Below, one piece after another: positions 1-19,695 of a stretch of DNA of 19,695 nucleotides. Within the stretch, counting starts at the first letter, position 1; each line of letters begins with the position of its first letter. The notes below the pieces were generated by a model. It searched no databases and was not told the DNA's origin. It saw nothing but the letters and a program-made list of their open reading frames with translations. Location of the stretch: NCBI GenBank assembly GCA_037924335.1, contig JAXSMZ010000028.1, positions 1 to 19,695 of the forward strand. Direction: 5' to 3'. A program made the position numbers and the translations under genes. This stretch comes from Aquificaceae bacterium. GTDB taxonomy: Bacteria; Aquificota; Aquificia; Aquificales; Aquificaceae.

Positions 1-309
1 CACATATATGTCTTCCGTCATAAGCTGTCCAGAGAGGTAAAAATAGACTTCTTCTGGGCTTAGGCTTTTCAACTTTGAGGAAATTATGCTGTATGCTATC
101 TCCCAGTCTATTTCCTTGAAAGAGCCTCTTTTGCTTTCTCTAAAGAGAGGTCTTAAAAGCCTATCCTTGTGCATAACCTTTGGATAGTAAAGTGGCTTTT
201 GACATACATCTCCTTTAGATGCCATATGGTCTTTGTCACCCCTTACCCTCCCACCATCATAGAGAAGGCCACAACCAACACCACAGTATGGACACTGAAA
301 GGCTTTCAT
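1..309 (-). CDS. narB: Assimilatory nitrate reductase catalytic subunit (NarB/NasA-type molybdopterin oxidoreductase), N-terminal 103 aa; runs off the window edge
   Basis: Not in the ORF track. Manual translation from ATG at 309 gives MKAFQCPYCGVGCGLLYDGGRVRGDKDHMASKGDVCQKPLYYPKVMHKDRLLRPLFRE...FYLSGQLMTEDIYV. It has the CPYCGVGC...CxK [4Fe-4S] motif, RLxxP and SGQxxTEDxY. It starts 1 nt after the transporter stop and is open to position 1. Confidence 0.93.
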   Translation of the reverse strand, partial: MKAFQCPYCGVGCGLLYDGGRVRGDKDHMASKGDVCQKPLYYPKVMHKDRLLRPLFRESKRGSFKEIDWEIAYSIISSKLKSLSPEEVYFYLSGQLMTEDIYV

Positions 310-310
310 C

Positions 311-1735
311 TTAGTCTCCCTTGTAAACAAGATCCATCACCACCCTCCCGTTGGGAGCTATGCCTACAAGCATATCCTTTTCGTAATCATACCTCACATG
401 AGCCCATTCCATCCACTGGCTATGCACAAGCCTTAGCAGAACCAAAGCAGTTAAGGCTACCATTGAAAAGAGAAAAAAGCCTGCAGAGTAAGAACCGGTT
501 GTCTCCTTTACTATACCTAAGATGGTGGGAAGGTAAAAACCTCCAAAACCGCCGGCTGCGCCTATAATTCCAGCCATAATACCCCTTGCCCTTGGCCATC
601 TATGGGGTACAAGCTGGAAGGTCGCCCCATTGCCAAGTCCGAAGAAGGCGAAGATTACAAGAATGGCAATTACACCAAGAATGGGAGGGAGATTAAACAG
701 GGATAGTATCATATAGGTGCTGGATATACCAAAAAGTATAAAGATTAAAGCTCTAACACCACTTATCATATCAGCAATAAAGCCACCAAAGGGCCTTATA
801 AAGGCTCCCATAAAAGCAAAGAGGGACATTAAGGCTCCAGCCTGTAGCTTTGAAAAACCATACTGATCAATAAGATAAAGGCTTACGTAAGAGGACATAC
901 CCACAAAACCACCAAAGGTTATGCTGTATATGAGGACCATAAGCCATGTATCCCTTTCAAGAAACACTCTTCTGTATCTGTTTGGTAGAAAAGAAAGCAC
1001 AAAGGCGCTTCCTATAAATGGAAGTAAAAGCAGGGCTTCTTTACCTTTTATACCAAGCCAGCCTCTCTCAAGGGCCGGGACCAAAAAGATCATAAACAGG
1101 ATGGTTATAACAAAGACAAGGATGGAATAAGTTCCCTTGCCTTCTTTTTCCCCTTTATCCTTTGACCAGAAGAAGACCACCAAAAAGGTTATTATCAATA
1201 AAAGCCCCGCTATAGCCATAGTTTCCTTCCAACCAAAGAGCTTTGCCAAAGGTGGGAAAAGAACGCCGTCAAGCACAGCCCCTATGTTTCCAGCCGCAGC
1301 AAGCCCCAATACAAGACCTTGCACCTCTCTTGGGTAATTGCTACCAGCCATAGGAAGGGCCACGGCAAAGCTAGCTCCACCCATACCCAAAAGTACACCC
1401 AAAAGGAGAAGCACCGAGTAATCACCCAAATAGTATGGAAACAGAAGAGCAAAGAGGGATGGGATGCTGGAAAGGATTATGCCAGCCAAGGCTGTCTTCC
1501 TTCCATCTACGGACTGGTAGAGATAGCCTAAGTTTATCCTAAATATGGCGGCGGAAAGAACGGGCACAGCCACAAGAAAGCCCTTTTGTACAGGGGAAAG
1601 GTTCAGCTCTTGGGCTATAAAGGGTGCCAAGGCACCAAGCAGAAGCCATATGCTAAAGCCCGTATCAAAGTACAAAAAGGATGCAAAAAGGGCCTTCGGA
1701 TTGCCAGACTTTATAGCTTCTATGATACGTCTCAT
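311..1735 (-). CDS. MFS nitrate/nitrite porter (NNP family, NarK/NasA-like)
   Basis: Nitrate signature GGASFAVALPMAGSNYP..QGLVLGLAAAGNIG, YSITFGGFVG and GLGNGATFQLVP. Both conserved substrate Arg residues are present (AIFRINLG, AFIRPFGG). RBS AAGGAGGT lies at 1741-1748 (minus). Confidence 0.92.
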   Translation of the reverse strand: MRRIIEAIKSGNPKALFASFLYFDTGFSIWLLLGALAPFIAQELNLSPVQKGFLVAVPVLSAAIFRINLGYLYQSVDGRKTALAGIILSSIPSLFALLFPYYLGDYSVLLLLGVLLGMGGASFAVALPMAGSNYPREVQGLVLGLAAAGNIGAVLDGVLFPPLAKLFGWKETMAIAGLLLIITFLVVFFWSKDKGEKEGKGTYSILVFVITILFMIFLVPALERGWLGIKGKEALLLLPFIGSAFVLSFLPNRYRRVFLERDTWLMVLIYSITFGGFVGMSSYVSLYLIDQYGFSKLQAGALMSLFAFMGAFIRPFGGFIADMISGVRALIFILFGISSTYMILSLFNLPPILGVIAILVIFAFFGLGNGATFQLVPHRWPRARGIMAGIIGAAGGFGGFYLPTILGIVKETTGSYSAGFFLFSMVALTALVLLRLVHSQWMEWAHVRYDYEKDMLVGIAPNGRVVMDLVYKGD

Positions 1736-1753
1736 TTCATACCTCCTTGCTAT

Positions 1754-2209
1754 TTAGAACTTTTTGTAATGAAGCCACTTACCATTGAGACTTAGTAGCA
1801 TTCTTGAAACGCCTGAGGGTTCTTCTATTCTTTGAACATCTATTGACATATCTATGGCACTCATAATACCATCACCAAAAAGTTCATGAGCAACGTCTTT
1901 AATAACAGGGCCATAAAGCATGACTACTTCATAAAGTCTGTATACAAAAGGGTCTGTGGGAGGCCATGGTTGAGAAGGAATCCTGTAGGGAGCTTTAGTT
2001 AAAACCTTTTTAACTTCTTCCGGTACTCCTAGAACATCTATCAATTTACTTGCCTCTTTTTCTGTTGCTTGCCCATAGCCGTATACAAGCATGGCTGTGT
2101 ATACGGGGCTTAGACCCATGACCTTGGCCAACTGGTCCCATGTCAAACCCTTTTCATCCTTTGCTGAAAGCAGTAAATTCCTTACATCTTCTCTTGTGTA
2201 TAGCTTCAT
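1754..2209 (-). CDS. cynS: Cyanase (cyanate hydratase)
   Basis: PTDPFVYRLYE (catalytic Arg/Glu), HELFGDGIMSAID (catalytic Ser), C-terminal GKWLHY and an N-terminal HTH-like domain; 151 aa. Confidence 0.97.
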   Translation of the reverse strand: MKLYTREDVRNLLLSAKDEKGLTWDQLAKVMGLSPVYTAMLVYGYGQATEKEASKLIDVLGVPEEVKKVLTKAPYRIPSQPWPPTDPFVYRLYEVVMLYGPVIKDVAHELFGDGIMSAIDMSIDVQRIEEPSGVSRMLLSLNGKWLHYKKF

Positions 2210-2535
2210 CTAATAACTCCAAGCTCTCTTTTCTTTGTCCTTATGGTCCAAACATCTTCAAGCTGACAGATAAAAACCTTTCCATCTCCAAACATACCAG
2301 TATGGGCATGCCTTATTATAATGTCCACTACCTTGTCCGAATGCTCATCCTCAACTGCTATCATTATTAGAGTCTTTGAAAGCTCATCGTAGCTTTTGTC
2401 TCCTACTTGAATACCACCCTCCATTCCTCTTCCCACCACATCCATCACCGTTATACCCTTAAAACCTTCCTTTTCTAAAGCTTTCATAACTTCATAAAGC
2501 TTCTCCGGTCTTATTATAGCCTTTATCATCTTCAT
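2206..2535 (-). CDS. P-II family nitrogen regulator, NifI1-like
   Basis: MKMIKAIIRPEKL, DVVGRG, a short T-loop ending YDELSK, HTGMFGDGKVF and WTIRT. Start moved to ATG 2535 because of RBS GGAGGT at 2541-2546 and the ATGA overlap with the upstream stop. Confidence 0.92.
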   Translation of the reverse strand: MKMIKAIIRPEKLYEVMKALEKEGFKGITVMDVVGRGMEGGIQVGDKSYDELSKTLIMIAVEDEHSDKVVDIIIRHAHTGMFGDGKVFICQLEDVWTIRTKKRELGVIR

Positions 2536-2822
2536 GACCAACCTCCTATCACAAAGATCTTTCCATCGCCATAAAAGCCCGTATGGGCTATCTCCATGAT
2601 CTTCTCCACCACCTCCTCATAGAGGGCATCTTCCACCCAGGTAAGGATAAGGGTTTTTGGAAGAAGGGACATAATAACTCCTTTCTTTGTTTTGTACCCC
2701 AATCCCCCCTCCTTACCCCTTCCTTTTACGGTTTTGGATACATAATCAAGCCCTATAGATGAGAGGAAGTTTTTTACTTCCGTGCTTTTTTCCCTTCTGA
2801 CTATTGCCATAAGCTCCTTCAT
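2532..2822 (-). CDS. P-II family protein, NifI2-like, C-terminally short (96 aa)
   Basis: MKELMAIVRREK, VKGRGK, LLPK and HTGFYGDGKIFV. It ends before the usual C-loop RxRTGE. ATGA overlaps with both neighbours. Confidence 0.88.
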   Translation of the reverse strand: MKELMAIVRREKSTEVKNFLSSIGLDYVSKTVKGRGKEGGLGYKTKKGVIMSLLPKTLILTWVEDALYEEVVEKIMEIAHTGFYGDGKIFVIGGWS

Positions 2823-3247
2823 TGTGTGCCTCCTTTGACTTCCTCAAGGCATGCGTAAAGTTTTTTCTCTTTGCTGATTAATACATCAGCTAAAAACCAA
2901 TAGGCTTCCTTCCATGCCTCAATAAGGTCTTGGCTAACATCCATTTCAACCATGGCTTGGTAAAGGGCATCCCAAACCTTAGGGTAGTGTTCAGGCTTTA
3001 CACCAGCCTTTGTATGGGCAAGCGCCATTGTGTTTATGGCTGGTTTCAGTACGTTCAGTCTTTCCAGATTTTGGGCAAAGGCAAGCAAAGCACTGGCAAG
3101 CTTTTTAGAGTTATCACTTTCAAACATGCTCCTAAGCTCTGGGTCTTTTTCAAAGAGTATCTGGTACATGCGAGAGGTTAGCTTCTCACCATTAGACTGC
3201 AAAAAAGGTATGCTCCTTCTTATGGCCACCTTTGTTTCTTCCCGCAT
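2819..3247 (-). CDS. Single-domain 3/3 globin (Vitreoscilla hemoglobin/thermoglobin-like, flavohemoglobin globin domain without reductase)
   Basis: B10 Tyr (RMYQILF), CD1 Phe (PELRSMF), proximal F8 His (MALAH), GVKPEHYP, AWKEAY and terminal KEKKLY. RBS AAGGAGGT at 3256-3263 (minus). Confidence 0.93.
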   Translation of the reverse strand: MREETKVAIRRSIPFLQSNGEKLTSRMYQILFEKDPELRSMFESDNSKKLASALLAFAQNLERLNVLKPAINTMALAHTKAGVKPEHYPKVWDALYQAMVEMDVSQDLIEAWKEAYWFLADVLISKEKKLYACLEEVKGGTQ

Positions 3248-3274: not shown

Positions 3275-3291
3275 TGCAAATCTCATACCAA
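3275..3291 (-). promoter_or_regulatory. sigma54 (-24/-12) promoter for the globin-PII-PII-cynS-transporter-narB operon
   Basis: The minus strand reads TTGGTATGAGATTTGCA, an exact GG-N10-GC spacing with TTGC. The predicted start (~3264) lies just upstream of the RBS. Confidence 0.8.
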
Positions 3292-3341: not shown

Positions 3342-3393
3342 TATGCTTACATTATTGTAAAATTGCATACAATAATGTAATATTGTAAGCATA
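3342..3393. promoter_or_regulatory. Palindromic upstream activator/operator site shared by the divergent promoters
   Basis: Perfect inverted repeat TTACATTATTGTA (3347-3359) - 8 nt - TACAATAATGTAA (3368-3380), with core TGT-N10-ACA (also GTA-N8-TAC). A second inverted pair is TATGCTTACA (3342-3351) / TGTAAGCATA (3384-3393). Confidence 0.72.
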
Positions 3394-3449: not shown

Positions 3450-3466
3450 TTGGCAACATCTTTGCA
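3450..3466 (+). promoter_or_regulatory. sigma54 (-24/-12) promoter for the nitrite reductase gene
   Basis: TTGGCAACATCTTTGCA is TGGCA-N6-TTGCA with exact GG-N10-GC spacing. The predicted start (~3477) precedes RBS AGGAGGT at 3478-3484. Confidence 0.85.
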
Positions 3467-3488
3467 CGGATGGAGGTAGGAGGTGTCT

Positions 3489-6335
3489 ATGAAGGTTATA
3501 GTTGTGGGAAACGGTATGGCAAGCACCGCTTTAGTTGAGGAGCTCACAAGGCTAAACGGAGATGTTAATGTACATGTTTTTGGTGAAGAGAAGACTTTAA
3601 GCTACAACAGGATACACTTGGCGGATGTTCTCAGCGGTAAAAAGCTTTTTAGCCAAATAGTAATAAACAGGTGGAGCTATTACGAAGAGCAAGGGATAAG
3701 GCTTCATACAGGCAGTAAGGTTGAGAAAGTATTCCCCTGGAAGAAGCTTTTGCTTACTTCTGATGGAAGGCTTTATCCCTACGACAAGCTGGTTATAGCC
3801 ACTGGAAGCCTTCCCAGAGTGCCACCCATAAAGGGTGTGGATAAGAGAGGGGTCTTTACCTTTAGGAGCATAAAGGATGTGTATGGCATAATGGAGCTGG
3901 CAAGGGTTTCAAAAAAAGCTGTGGTTATAGGTGGTGGGCTCCTTGGCATTGAGTGTGCAAAGGCTTTAAAAGATATTAGCCTTGATGTTTATCTGGTCCA
4001 TCTTTTTGACGTGCTTATGGAACAGTACATTGACAGAACAGCCAGCGATATGCTGAGAAAAAGCCTTGAGGACTTTGGTATAAAGGTTTTGCTTTCAAAA
4101 AGGACAGAGGAGATTATCGGAGACAGAAAGGTTAGCCATGTGAGGTTTTCCGATGGAGAAGAGATAAAGACGGATATGGTCATAATAGCCACAGGCGTGG
4201 TGCCCAATGTGGAGCTGGCAAAAAACTCTGGTATAAGGGTGGATAGGGGTGTGCTTGTAAATGATTTTCTTGAAACATCGGAGCAGGATGTATACGCCAT
4301 AGGCGATTGTATACAGCACAGAGGAAAGACTTACGGGCTTTTGGCTTACATAATGGATCAGGTTAAGATTTGTGCCAAAAACCTCCTGTATGGCAATGTG
4401 GAAAGGTACGAAGGATCCTTAAGCTATGCCATCTTAAAGGTGGCTGGGGTAAGGCTTATGTCGGTGGGAGAGGTGCAGGAAAGGGAAGAGGATGAGGTGA
4501 TCCTCTTTAAAGACAACTCCAGGTATAGAAAGGCCATTGTAAGGGATGGTAGGCTTTTGGGTGCCATACTGCTTGGAGACTTGGCAGGAAGTGAAAGCCT
4601 TTTGGAACTTATAAGGACAGGGAAAAGCGTGGAAAACATAAAGCCCCACTTCCTTATAAAGGACCTCATCAAGGAAGAGGTAAAACTTACCTTCAAGCCG
4701 GAAGACATTGTATGCAGCTGCAACGCTGTATCTTACGGAAGGATACTTGAGGCCATTAAAAGTGGAGCTAAAACCGTTGAGGACCTTCAAAATCTTACAA
4801 AAGCTTCCACTTCCTGCGGTGGATGTATGCCCCTTCTTGAAGGCATACTAAAAGAGCATGTAAAGGTAAAGCCAGTAAGAATAAACAAGGTGGAAGAGTA
4901 CAAAAGAAGCAGGCATCCCTTTGATATTAAGCTAAGGGAAAGGCTTGAGGTTTGGGCAAGGGAGCATGGAAATTGGCAAAGGGTGCCAGAGGAAGATAGG
5001 GAGTATGGGCTAAAGTGGTACGGTATCTTTTACAGAAAAGCCACACCGGGCTATTTTATGGTTAGGATTAGGATAACCCATGGAAAGCTAAACGCAGACC
5101 AAGCAAAGATCATAGCATACCTCTCTAAGAAGTTTGGAAGAAACCAGATAGACCTCACCTCAAGAGAACAGATACAGCTAAGATGGATAGAGCTGAAAGA
5201 CCTTCCAGAGGTCCTATTAGCTATAGAAAGAGTGGGGCTTACAACCTTACAAACAGGCATGGACAACGTAAGAAACATTACAGGAGACCCCCTATCGGGC
5301 CTTGCAGAAGACTCAATTATTGACACCATCCCTATAAGCAAGAGGATAACGGAGCTTTTCCTAGGCAAAAGGCAGTATGCGGACCTTCCAAGGAAGTTTA
5401 ACCTGGGCTTGGTGGGGTCAAAGACGGATAGCATAAACTGCAAATATAACGACCTTTGCTTTTACATGGCAAAGAAGGACAACATCTATGGCTTTAATGT
5501 TTATGCAGGTGGTAAAGTAGGCTCTGGTGGTCCTGTGGAGGCTCTTGATTTAAACATCTTTGTCCTACCCTACGAAGCCACAGATATAACAAAGGCTGTG
5601 CTTGAGATATATTCAGACATGGGCAACAGGGAGGACAGGACAAAGAACAGGCTTTACTTCTTGATAGAAGAGTTGGGTGTGGAGGGTTTTAGAAGTGAGA
5701 TAGAAAGAAGGCTTTTAAGGAACCTATGGAGAAAGGGTGAGGACTTGGTAGAGAGGGTGGGCGAAAGGACTGGAGTAATCAGGCAGAAGAATGGTCTCTA
5801 TGCGGTTAGCCTAATGGTGCCTGCAGGCATCTTTACAGGAGAGGATTTAGAAAGGCTGGCACACCTTTCAAGGAAATACGGAAGCGGTGAGATAAGGCTG
5901 TCCGTTTATCAAAACCTATACCTTGTAAACATACCAGAGGAACACTTGGAAGACCTACTTTCTGAACCTATCTTCAGCAAGTATCCTATCAACGCCTCCC
6001 CATACCTTACAGGGCTTATAGCCTGTCAAGGAAGTGAGACCTGCGCCTTTGGAGTCATTGAAAACAAACCGGATGCCTTAAGGCTTGTACATTACCTTTC
6101 CCAAAAGATACCAACCTACATACCCTTACGCATGCACTGGTCCGGCTGTGCCAAGGGTTGTGGACAGCATGGTTCTGGAGACCTTGGCTTTGTGGGTACA
6201 AAGGTAAAGGTAAACGGAGAGGTCAAGCTGGCTGTGGATGTTTTCTTAAAAGGAAAGAAGGTCCAAACCATTCCCCTTGACAACTTGGAGGATTCTACGG
6301 AAGAGTTGGTGCGTAGCTTAATCAAAAGCACATAA
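3489..6335 (+). CDS. nirB: Assimilatory siroheme nitrite reductase: NAD(P)H/FAD module + BFD-like [2Fe-2S] + NirA-type catalytic body
   Basis: FAD motif VVGNGMA, ATGS, NAD motif VIGGGLLGIE and YAIGDC; BFD motif CSCN...CGGC; LKWYG, FMVRIR, TGMDNVRN and LPRKFN; siroheme/[4Fe-4S] Cys in CQGSETC and SGCAKGC. Start set to ATG 3489 because of the RBS. Confidence 0.93.
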   Translation: MKVIVVGNGMASTALVEELTRLNGDVNVHVFGEEKTLSYNRIHLADVLSGKKLFSQIVINRWSYYEEQGIRLHTGSKVEKVFPWKKLLLTSDGRLYPYDKLVIATGSLPRVPPIKGVDKRGVFTFRSIKDVYGIMELARVSKKAVVIGGGLLGIECAKALKDISLDVYLVHLFDVLMEQYIDRTASDMLRKSLEDFGIKVLLSKRTEEIIGDRKVSHVRFSDGEEIKTDMVIIATGVVPNVELAKNSGIRVDRGVLVNDFLETSEQDVYAIGDCIQHRGKTYGLLAYIMDQVKICAKNLLYGNVERYEGSLSYAILKVAGVRLMSVGEVQEREEDEVILFKDNSRYRKAIVRDGRLLGAILLGDLAGSESLLELIRTGKSVENIKPHFLIKDLIKEEVKLTFKPEDIVCSCNAVSYGRILEAIKSGAKTVEDLQNLTKASTSCGGCMPLLEGILKEHVKVKPVRINKVEEYKRSRHPFDIKLRERLEVWAREHGNWQRVPEEDREYGLKWYGIFYRKATPGYFMVRIRITHGKLNADQAKIIAYLSKKFGRNQIDLTSREQIQLRWIELKDLPEVLLAIERVGLTTLQTGMDNVRNITGDPLSGLAEDSIIDTIPISKRITELFLGKRQYADLPRKFNLGLVGSKTDSINCKYNDLCFYMAKKDNIYGFNVYAGGKVGSGGPVEALDLNIFVLPYEATDITKAVLEIYSDMGNREDRTKNRLYFLIEELGVEGFRSEIERRLLRNLWRKGEDLVERVGERTGVIRQKNGLYAVSLMVPAGIFTGEDLERLAHLSRKYGSGEIRLSVYQNLYLVNIPEEHLEDLLSEPIFSKYPINASPYLTGLIACQGSETCAFGVIENKPDALRLVHYLSQKIPTYIPLRMHWSGCAKGCGQHGSGDLGFVGTKVKVNGEVKLAVDVFLKGKKVQTIPLDNLEDSTEELVRSLIKST

Positions 6336-19187: not shown

Positions 19188-19263
19188 TGGCTCCGGGGGA
19201 GGGACTCGAACCCCCAACCAGGTGGTTAACAGCCACCCGCTCTGCCTGTTGAGCTACCCCGGA
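19188..19263 (-). tRNA. tRNA-Asn (GTT)
   Basis: TCCGGGGTAGCTCAACAGGCAGAGCGGGTGGCTGTTAACCACCTGGTTGGGGGTTCGAGTCCCTCCCCCGGAGCCA: 76 nt, acceptor stem TCCGGGG/CCCCGGA, anticodon loop CTGTTAA, GTTCGA T-loop and encoded CCA. Confidence 0.98.
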
Positions 19264-19269
19264 TACTCC

Positions 19270-19400
19270 CATTAAATTATATTATAGTTCCTCATCCCAT
19301 AGAAAAATATTCCACAGGACGAGGTTTCGCAGGCAAGGAGACTATAGACTCCCTTGTGAACCGCATAAGAACATTCCTCGCACCTACAATGTCTGCATCT
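19270..19400 (-). ncRNA. Putative TnpB omega/reRNA 3' scaffold plus flank-derived guide
   Basis: Hairpins at 19334-19356 and 19290-19324 (the latter has 4 G-U pairs on the tnpB-sense strand). TnpB guide RNAs are known to overlap the gene 3' end and extend into the flank. Limits are approximate. Confidence 0.5.
19276..19286 (-). promoter_or_regulatory. Overlapping TATAAT -10 boxes upstream of tRNA-Asn
   Basis: The minus strand reads TATAATATAAT, ending 12 nt before the tRNA 5' end. Confidence 0.55.
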
Positions 19401-19695
19401 CCTTCATACCCACACCGTAGGCACTTGAAATGCTCCCCTTTGCGGTTCATCCTGTCCTGATATCCACACTCAGGACAAGTCCTGCTTGTGTAAGCAGAAG
19501 GAACTATGTAATGCTGGACGCCAGCGGTCTCACATAGCTCCTTTATCCTCTTTATAACATACCCATACAACCAGTGGTTAAACCTCCTGTTTACTACCCT
19601 ACTCCAGACTTTTCTCTTTCCCTTCTTCAAATTCTTTAATCCTTCAAGCACTGGAGAAAAACTGCCATCTATCACCTTCTTGAGTATCCTGTTTA
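19287..19695 (-). mobile_element. Right part of a tnpB-encoding insertion sequence (or its domesticated remnant)
   Basis: tnpB 3' half plus a terminal 15-bp hairpin, followed by an abrupt switch to AT-rich promoter DNA at 19286. The boundary is inferred and no transposase is visible in the window. Confidence 0.6.
19292..19695 (-). CDS. tnpB: RNA-guided endonuclease TnpB family protein (IS200/IS605/IS607-associated), C-terminal part
   Basis: The frame is open to the window edge (..NRILKKVIDGSFSPVLEGL..). It shows RuvC-II Glu (VLEGL), AYTSRTCPECG...FKCLRCG zinc ribbon and RuvC-III DADIVGARNV. Confidence 0.92.
   Translation of the reverse strand, partial: NRILKKVIDGSFSPVLEGLKNLKKGKRKVWSRVVNRRFNHWLYGYVIKRIKELCETAGVQHYIVPSAYTSRTCPECGYQDRMNRKGEHFKCLRCGYEGDADIVGARNVLMRFTRESIVSLPAKPRPVEYFSMG

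Follow-up and report, generated by a model that had tools for sequence, protein, structure and literature searches.

NifI-type heteromeric P-II proteins are known as inhibitors of nitrogenase, so what function does a pair of adjacent P-II genes resembling them perform in an operon for nitrate assimilation? The window (the whole stretch of 19,695 nucleotides that was analysed, from an Aquificaceae bacterium) contains the following features.

1..309, minus strand: N-terminus of an assimilatory nitrate reductase (NarB/NasB type; PF04879, PF00384), truncated by the contig end
311..1735, minus strand: NarK-family MFS nitrate/nitrite transporter, the proposed target (TIGR00886 best but below cut-off; orthologues named NarK/NNP)
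314..415, minus strand: C-terminal tail of NarK (residues 441-474), cytoplasmic and conserved, the proposed docking site (from conservation)
335-346, minus strand: R-V-x-M motif closing the NarK tail (from sequence comparison)
1754..2209, minus strand: cyanase CynS, accessory (TIGR00673 above cut-off)
2206..2535, minus strand: P-II subunit B, 109 amino acids, NifI1-type (top PDB match 9p1x_H, E 9e-29; in the NifI1 clade)
2532..2822, minus strand: P-II subunit A, 96 amino acids (PF00543)
2541..2547, minus strand: putative Shine-Dalgarno site of subunit B, within the last codons of A, also kept in fused genes
2819..3247, minus strand: single-domain globin of flavohaemoglobin/thermoglobin type, accessory (PF00042; best PDB matches 6WK3 and 7DIH)
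3275..3290, minus strand: sigma54 -24/-12 site of the globin-PII-cynS-narK-narB operon (2 mismatches)
3356..3371, no strand: TGT-N10-ACA enhancer-type site common to both promoters
3451..3466, plus strand: sigma54 -24/-12 site of the divergent nirB-nirA gene (1 mismatch)
3483..6335, plus strand: divergent nitrite reductase that joins a FAD/NAD module of NirB type to a sirohaem module of NirA type, the rival target

The three ATGA overlaps that chain globin, A, B and cynS, and the 1-nt gap between narK and narB, are borne out on the sequence; cynS and narK are 18 nt apart. The sequence-only reading had called these genes fused into one coupled operon, which holds as translational coupling but not as protein fusion, the genes being separate here. 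At the window edge the first 103 codons of the molybdoenzyme are present, from 309; the remainder of narB was searched for and is absent from the assembly, and the gene is identified by 72% identity with the N-terminus of a full-length orthologue. Support for the single sigma54 promoter proposed for the operon comes from position: the operon-side site by itself is at chance level (11 matches vs 9.2 expected), but a site at that position is conserved in 16/16 homologous intergenic regions, and a second site, facing nirB, likewise in 16/16. The TGT-N10-ACA site, which we take to be the NifA-type enhancer consensus, is found in 15 of the 16 regions and also upstream of the genome's own nifH, nifI1 and glnB.

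Both proteins belong to the P-II family (PF00543 over cut-off, P-II fold), and the phylogenetic check of the pair against GlnB/GlnK and NifI assigns B to the NifI1 type. B lies inside the NifI1 clade (support 98/92 in a tree of 65 hand-picked rows; 99 in a larger quick tree, from which 13 near-duplicate nif loci had been dropped beforehand), and 24/24 B proteins score best to NifI1 among three reference profiles. The earlier claim of a NifI1/NifI2-like pair with the NifI2-like member first therefore stands for B, and for A, which is long-branched, a NifI2 origin is one of three placements left unrejected by AU tests: p 0.46 with NifI2, 0.33 with B, which corresponds to a local duplication that would account for the Glu39 shared by A and B, and 0.17 with GlnB (the B-like P0125 was excluded from the GlnB set in these tests and in the profile scoring). 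All 24 A proteins score best to a profile of Dehalococcoidia A, itself within the NifI2 clade (95/93); against the three reference profiles only, 17 prefer NifI1 and 7 NifI2. The combination of GlnB/GlnK grouping, an intact C-loop R-x-R and Gln39 is not that of the pair, and at the GlnB Gln39 position every orthologue, 23 of A and 23 of B, has Glu, a change that may affect 2-oxoglutarate sensing. With NifI1/NifI2 of methanogens and anaerobic diazotrophs the pair shares two adjacent P-II genes, a B of the NifI1 clade, a likely 2:1 heterotrimer, and the B-loop, Lys58 and T-loop base, which are kept in both A and B. It differs in the Gln39 to Glu replacement in A and B, and in that the T-loop of A is short and its chain stops after the B-loop strand, without a C-loop (C-loop motif in 0/23 orthologues vs 25/27 NifI2), whereas in NifI2 the T-loop is long and the C-loop extended (PMC12439982). 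The lengths of its chains and their 12:6 ratio make PDB 9P1X a probable NifI1/NifI2 complex. The sequences suggest that the NifI system is at least partly the ancestor of the pair and that the pair was kept for nitrate assimilation.

The distribution of the pair bears on what it serves. Of 178 Aquificota genomes, 39 carry it, and among the 33 Aquificaceae with a NarK orthologue 32 also have A; in the single one without A, narK is truncated by the contig start. By comparison, only 5/39 carriers have nifH and 34/39 lack it, so that the pair tracks nitrate genes and not nitrogenase. The arrangement is also not that of nifI1-nifI2 within or beside nif genes, since the order is reversed, the operon is one for nitrate and A and B often form one gene. 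It is correct that no nif genes lie near the operon, but the organism cannot be described as without nitrogenase: in the same assembly contig C1 carries nifH, nifD, a split nifK, nifE and nifN, and contig C13 a separate nifI1-nifI2-nifB. Seven of the 39 carriers have no NarK orthologue; five of these rely on an ABC transporter with no R-V-x-M motif in its subunits, and in two (one complete) no nitrate gene was found. The B T-loop is altered in 6/6 NarK-less genomes examined, five of the six from one genus, and a remnant of A precedes an ABC-only operon. In Dehalococcoidia and Omnitrophota, related reversed pairs are found within nitrite/nitrate operons; the gene most often adjacent outside Aquificaceae is nitrite reductase, in many cases placed between A and B, and some three-gene operons are without NarK.

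A and B are fused into one gene in 23/37 genomes, and these natural fusions argue for a heteromer. No A fused to NirD was seen among 11 longer P-II hits. In all 23 fused genes B still has its own start codon, ATG/GTG, with a strong ribosome site (mean -12.6 kcal/mol vs -4.5 at 221 other internal ATG/GTG); a 5-mer ribosome site is present there in 23/23 fused and 13/14 split genes. The retained start would give a 1:2 A:B trimer, as in NifI, where the NifI1:NifI2 trimer is 2:1 (PMC12439982, 10.64898/2025.12.07.692841), though the site could be a relic of fusion, aided by the Glu-rich linker (14-15% background). For the fused model the Foldseek matches listed were single P-II chains only, with no tandem P-II structure among them, and the ESM Atlas search gave scores of only 0.80 or less. 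We regard it as quite probable, from sequence comparison, that A and B form a P-II heteromer dedicated to the nitrate pathway.

On which protein would such a heteromer act? Among 24 proteins the NarK tail is 76% identical vs 64% for the body; in sister families 5/5 complete NarK are without it and no P-II shows at their loci, and it is missing from 65 of the 120 homologues listed, among which three NarK proteins have an eroded last tail strand. Of the 1302 ORFs in the source genome one, NarK, ends in R-V-x-M. Where A is without a C-loop, R-V-x-M is present on NarK (in Dehalococcoidia on NirA too), and where A has a C-loop the motif was not seen; this pattern comes from three lineages, with genomes kin within each and many incomplete, and the motif was defined after the sequences were inspected. 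In Dehalococcoidia, A lacks the C-loop in 16/16, and the motif is found on 8/8 NarK, of two divergent types, and on 12 of 13 readable NirA ends; in Omnitrophota, A retains the C-loop in 8/8, and the motif is found on 0/3 NarK and 0/6 nitrite reductase ends. A matrix made from 15 Dehalococcoidia motifs alone ranks the Aquificaceae tail window 1st in 21 and 2nd in 4 of 25 NarK, and in tail-less controls it places a top-two window within the last 25 residues in 2/65. In the model of an orthologue the tail forms three low-confidence strands (pLDDT 48-62); profile comparisons of the tail with the P-II C-loop and with B revealed no similarity, and a metagenome scan with the NarK having an eroded last tail strand (P0281) found nothing.

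Of the four possible targets named in the sequence-only reading (nitrate reductase, the transporter, cyanase and nitrite reductase), the evidence favours the transporter, with nitrite reductase next, and we give the NarK tail an even chance of being the main site of A/B action. Under nitrogen limitation the two divergent sigma54 promoters would turn the pathway on. When ammonium is back and 2-oxoglutarate is down, a trimer, most likely of one A and two B, would bind the cytoplasmic C-terminal tail of NarK with its R-V-x-M, and nitrate uptake would be halted; by analogy with P-II and NifI, MgATP and 2-oxoglutarate would release the trimer. The globin, probably an NO scavenger, and the cyanase would be passengers. 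A more speculative extension, to which we give limited credence, is that A is incomplete by design: the R-V-x-M peptide of the target would replace the missing C-loop strand and complete the effector pocket that the C-loop of NifI2 forms, and hence would be a portable C-terminal tag able to recruit any protein (NarK here; NarK and NirA in Dehalococcoidia), with the internal translation start of the fused genes setting the 1:2 ratio.

It is possible, although we think it unlikely, that the pair acts instead on the nitrite reductase NirB-NirA, blocking its site for the electron donor, as NifI does with the NifH site, and that the NarK tail has another role or is a second target. The A-nirA-B order in Dehalococcoidia, Omnitrophota and metagenome loci, the motif on Dehalococcoidia NirA, and the presence of NirB in 33/39 carriers, including 5/7 of those without NarK, agree with this; however, the motif was not found on Aquificaceae NirB-NirA ends, nirB is here on the other transcript, and 13 of 46 NirB-positive Aquificaceae are without A, among them one complete genome whose nirB-ABC-narB cluster is intact. 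Control of NarB, of an ABC ATPase or of a NifA-type activator of both sigma54 promoters is improbable. NarB is present in 35/39 carriers, the enhancer sites are conserved with a NifA-like gene near some clusters, and in cyanobacteria P-II locks the ABC transporter NrtBCD (PMC10945777); yet NarB occurs without A in 43/58 genomes of two sister families and in 10/45 NarB-positive Aquificaceae, ABC-only operons are frequently without the pair, and ordinary GlnB candidates are also found in each genome, the own glnB being located away from the pair.

Two further explanations have very little probability. If the pair were a second nitrogenase switch tying nitrate use to N2 fixation, the nif genes of the source genome would fit, as would one complete nif-positive genome that retains the pair and in which no nitrate gene was found, but most carriers lack nifH, as noted, the genome has its own nifI1-nifI2, and the T-loop of A is short whereas the long T-loop of NifI2 makes most NifDK contacts. 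The other, a form of the candidate switch raised in the sequence-only reading, is an O2/NO switch in which the globin would sense and signal via the pair, with cyanase as a target. The ATGA coupling suits this, and every one of the 8 family genomes that have this globin carries the pair too; nevertheless, the globin (8/90 family genomes) and cynS (10/90) are each missing from 31/39 carriers and present in 8, two of the cynS being partial, so that the proposal is not sustained, and the gene order is variable. PDB and NCBIfam matches place the globin in the NO-dioxygenase type; they are thermoglobin, Vitreoscilla-type haemoglobin and flavohaemoglobins, and not globin-coupled sensors or protoglobins. 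Like thermoglobin (PDB 7DIH) and single-domain bacterial globins, it keeps the proximal His, with 43% identity to the orthologue of the Aquifex-type cluster, but ahead of the E helix it has three residues fewer and is without the Gln that thermoglobin has there. In one genome a 96% identical globin stands beside 65% identical P-II proteins, which points to independent transfer.

Returning to the reading in which a dedicated heteromer acts on NarK, a similar cluster does exist in the thermoglobin region of Aquifex aeolicus, as the sequence-only reading had stated, and its PII-like protein GlnBi (P0029) is an orthologue, with two halves that share 54-55% identity with A and 67% with B and stand in tandem beside narK-narB with thermoglobin and cynS in the neighbourhood. 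GlnBi is one 205-aa gene and the window has two, and by sequence the pair is a split form of it. An older review may mention Aquifex GlnBi; in the literature searched, with subscription journals mostly outside reach, no paper was found that deals with GlnBi or with NifI-like pairs in nitrate operons, and no description of P-II acting on an MFS nitrate transporter. The proposed control resembles cyanobacterial GlnB-NrtBCD, where P-II shuts nitrate uptake according to 2-oxoglutarate (PMC10945777), but there a general homotrimeric GlnB acts on an ABC regulatory domain, and here a dedicated heteromer would act on an MFS tail. For this family, a NifI-type branch present in at least three phyla within nitrate/nitrite operons would mean a second job, and it bears on which came first. 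The uncharacterised GlnBi of Aquifex gains a testable function and a 35-residue putative docking site is named; if the NarK-tail reading is true, it would be a case in which P-II acts on a nitrate transporter of the MFS type. Since the components are a peptide and small thermostable proteins, testing is cheap.

Subunits A and B are a recurrent companion of nitrate genes in Aquificaceae. The distribution counts are only descriptive, because the genomes are all kin and many are incomplete: A turned up in 39 of the 178 Aquificota genomes searched, every one in Aquificaceae, and B follows it in 37 of the 39, the other two loci stopping at a contig edge. In 23 of these 37 the two form a single gene of about 205 codons, and one fused protein is identical to the Aquifex aeolicus entry "PII-like protein GlnBi". 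A tandem P-II profile, run against 1.84 billion cluster representatives, gave only one strong match over its full length. According to hand-entered genome lists, A is present in 32 of the 33 Aquificaceae genomes with a NarK orthologue, 33 of the 46 with NirB (three of the 46 match the N-terminal half only) and 35 of the 45 with NarB; in two sister families NarB occurs in 43/58 genomes and A in none. Intact-looking pairs with no nitrate gene found were also seen in genomes G046 (complete and nif-positive; L057:8705-9312, near amtB-glnA-glnB, with both sigma54 sites kept) and G053 (L058:503-1128).

The window spans an entire contig, whose assembly has 1.53 Mb, and the close homologues bearing names are from Aquificaceae. 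The sequence bears out the sequence-only reading as to the six genes on the minus strand, their three ATGA overlaps and the 1-nt gap; "fused" applies to the overlaps and not to the products, which are six separate proteins. The sigma54 promoter proposed for the operon is unremarkable alone, but a site in the same setting recurs in 16/16 homologous intergenic regions, as does one toward the divergent nirB-nirA, and a TGT-N10-ACA site lies between the two in 15/16. Other features of the contig are:

3483-6335, plus strand: fused gene of a NirB-type FAD/NAD module and a NirA-type sirohaem module
19188-19263, minus strand: tRNA-Asn, immediately upstream of minC-minD-minE-like genes
19292-19695, minus strand: C-terminal part of a TnpB-like protein, at the end of the contig

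The true start of nirB-nirA may be ATG 3489. The fusion is full-length in many Aquificaceae; sister-family matches mostly cover the NirA half only. A TrpD-like glycosyltransferase family 3 gene (L061:6585-7514) recurs in fused-type and sister-family nitrate clusters.

The supposed lack of nitrogenase is wrong at genome level. The assembly contains nifH, nifD, a split nifK, nifE and nifN, together with separate nifI1-nifI2-nifB and glnB-glnA-amtB, which brings its P-II genes to five. The nifK gene lies in two frames (own genome, G000:C1:97902-106717) and is followed by Crp-like, small nif-associated and aminotransferase-like genes, labelled by eye, and then nifE-nifN. A diazotrophic Aquificales culture with split NifK plus NifI1/NifI2 is on record in PMC12780486. 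Among Aquificota, nifH occurs in 12/178 genomes and in 5/39 of those bearing the pair.

The claim that the pair is NifI1/NifI2-like is upheld by phylogeny for B, which falls inside the NifI1 clade (support 98/92; 99 in a quick tree). A sits on a long branch, and placement with NifI2 (p 0.46), as a local duplication (0.33) or with GlnB (0.17) was in no case rejected. All 24 Aquificaceae A proteins score highest against a Dehalococcoidia A profile, and the Dehalococcoidia A proteins group with NifI2 (95/93); when only the three reference profiles are compared, 17 favour NifI1 and 7 NifI2. The C-loop is found in 0/23 A versus 25/27 NifI2. Position 39, a Mg-binding Gln in most P-II proteins, is Glu in 23/23 A and 23/23 B. 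The best solved relative of B is a 105-residue chain present in 12 copies in 9P1X, presumably NifI1.

The pair would work like NifI, but differs from it in gene order, nif linkage and NifI2 loops; it would also resemble cyanobacterial P-II control of nitrate uptake, as described in PMC10945777. A 2026 study of how methanogens use nitrate (PMC13381448) covers the clade of the pair-linked NarK, and a term search of its accessible text found no mention of the pair. The accessible portions of PMC3917532 and PMC5061849 contributed nothing further, and no published description is among the papers that literature searches listed. In NifI, two NifI1 subunits and one NifI2 assemble into a trimer, with one effector pocket built from a NifI1 T/B-loop and the NifI2 C-loop (PMC12439982; 10.64898/2025.12.07.692841), and a 1:1 A-B fusion seems at odds with this 2:1 trimer. 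In 23/23 fused genes the B half starts with ATG (19) or GTG (4), preceded by a strong ribosome site that is written in different reading frames; a second B subunit would be made from this internal start. Alternatively, the site may be a relic of the fusion. The fused protein is predicted to form two packed P-II domains (pTM 0.81).

Reversed pairs also occur outside Aquificota. When genomes were scanned with the alignment of B, 80 loci matched, 28 of them from Aquificota; the other 52 include reversed pairs at one Omnitrophota and 11 Chloroflexota loci, all but one of these 12 adjoined by nitrite or nitrate reductase genes. Within the same Chloroflexota class, Dehalococcoidia, 21/301 genomes gave matches; the 20 regions inspected comprise 14 of the form A-[oxidoreductase]-[narK]-nirA-B, 3 nif and 3 glnB. 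Matches in Omnitrophota (8/301 genomes) have nitrite or nitrate genes at 7/8 loci, and 80 metagenome loci divide into 57 nif, 8 nitrate/nitrite and 15 neither. Several Dehalococcoidia operons carry a 216-aa molybdopterin oxidoreductase-domain gene (PF00174) between A and narK (e.g. L184:273-923); no narB was seen in them, and the protein is possibly a stand-in nitrate reductase.

The proposed target is the cytoplasmic tail of NarK, which ends in R-V-x-M in Aquificaceae and is more conserved than the body (76% vs 64%, 24 proteins). It is present in 27/30 loci, the other three being two cut and one sister-family, and absent from five complete sister-family NarK, at whose loci no P-II was seen, and from 65 among the 120 NarK homologues listed, the named ones proteobacterial. 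Three homologues (P0280, P0281, P0287) keep the first tail part and have lost the R-V-x-M strand. In the window's own genome the motif occurs in 1/1302 ORFs, NarK itself, and NirB-NirA is without it. In Dehalococcoidia a similar motif ends 8/8 NarK, of two divergent types, and 12/13 readable NirA, and motif matches (18/229 ORFs) are all NarK or NirA; because some of these operons contain only A, nirA and B, the pair is pointed to as partner of the motif. A matrix of 15 Dehalococcoidia motifs gave one of its two top windows to the tail in 25/25 Aquificaceae NarK, as against 2/65 controls with such a window near their end.

A retains the C-loop in Omnitrophota and in 8 metagenome nitrate loci, and the motif was seen on 0/3 NarK and 0/6 nitrite reductases among complete Omnitrophota ends. 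ABC-only nitrate clusters are without the pair in three Aquificaceae loci and in one from a sister family. Upstream of one such operon, in G064, lies an 18-codon remnant resembling the start of A (L109:4654-4800).

Given these sequence patterns, the chances that the pair acts on NarK through the tail appear evenly balanced. Counting against it, seven pair-bearing genomes have no NarK, two of them with no nitrate gene found; the constant neighbour outside Aquificaceae is nitrite reductase; the pattern of tail and C-loop covers three lineages only; the definition of the motif is post hoc; a profile comparison of tail and C-loop found no similarity; and the tail is weakly modelled in the predicted structure. 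That the R-V-x-M peptide would substitute for the C-loop strand missing in A is rather unlikely.

Globin occurs in 8/90 Aquificaceae genomes, all 8 among the 39 bearing the pair, and cynS in 10/90, 8 among the 39. The globin resembles thermoglobin and flavohaemoglobin globin domains and by analogy is likely to remove NO during nitrite turnover. The coupled globin/cyanase switch envisaged earlier is disfavoured because globin is patchy, shifts in position and has a 96% identical copy beside diverged P-II proteins. That copy, downstream of B in G063 (L054:7085-7510), is likely a recent transfer: the P-II proteins and NirB of G063 are only 65-66% identical to those of the window.
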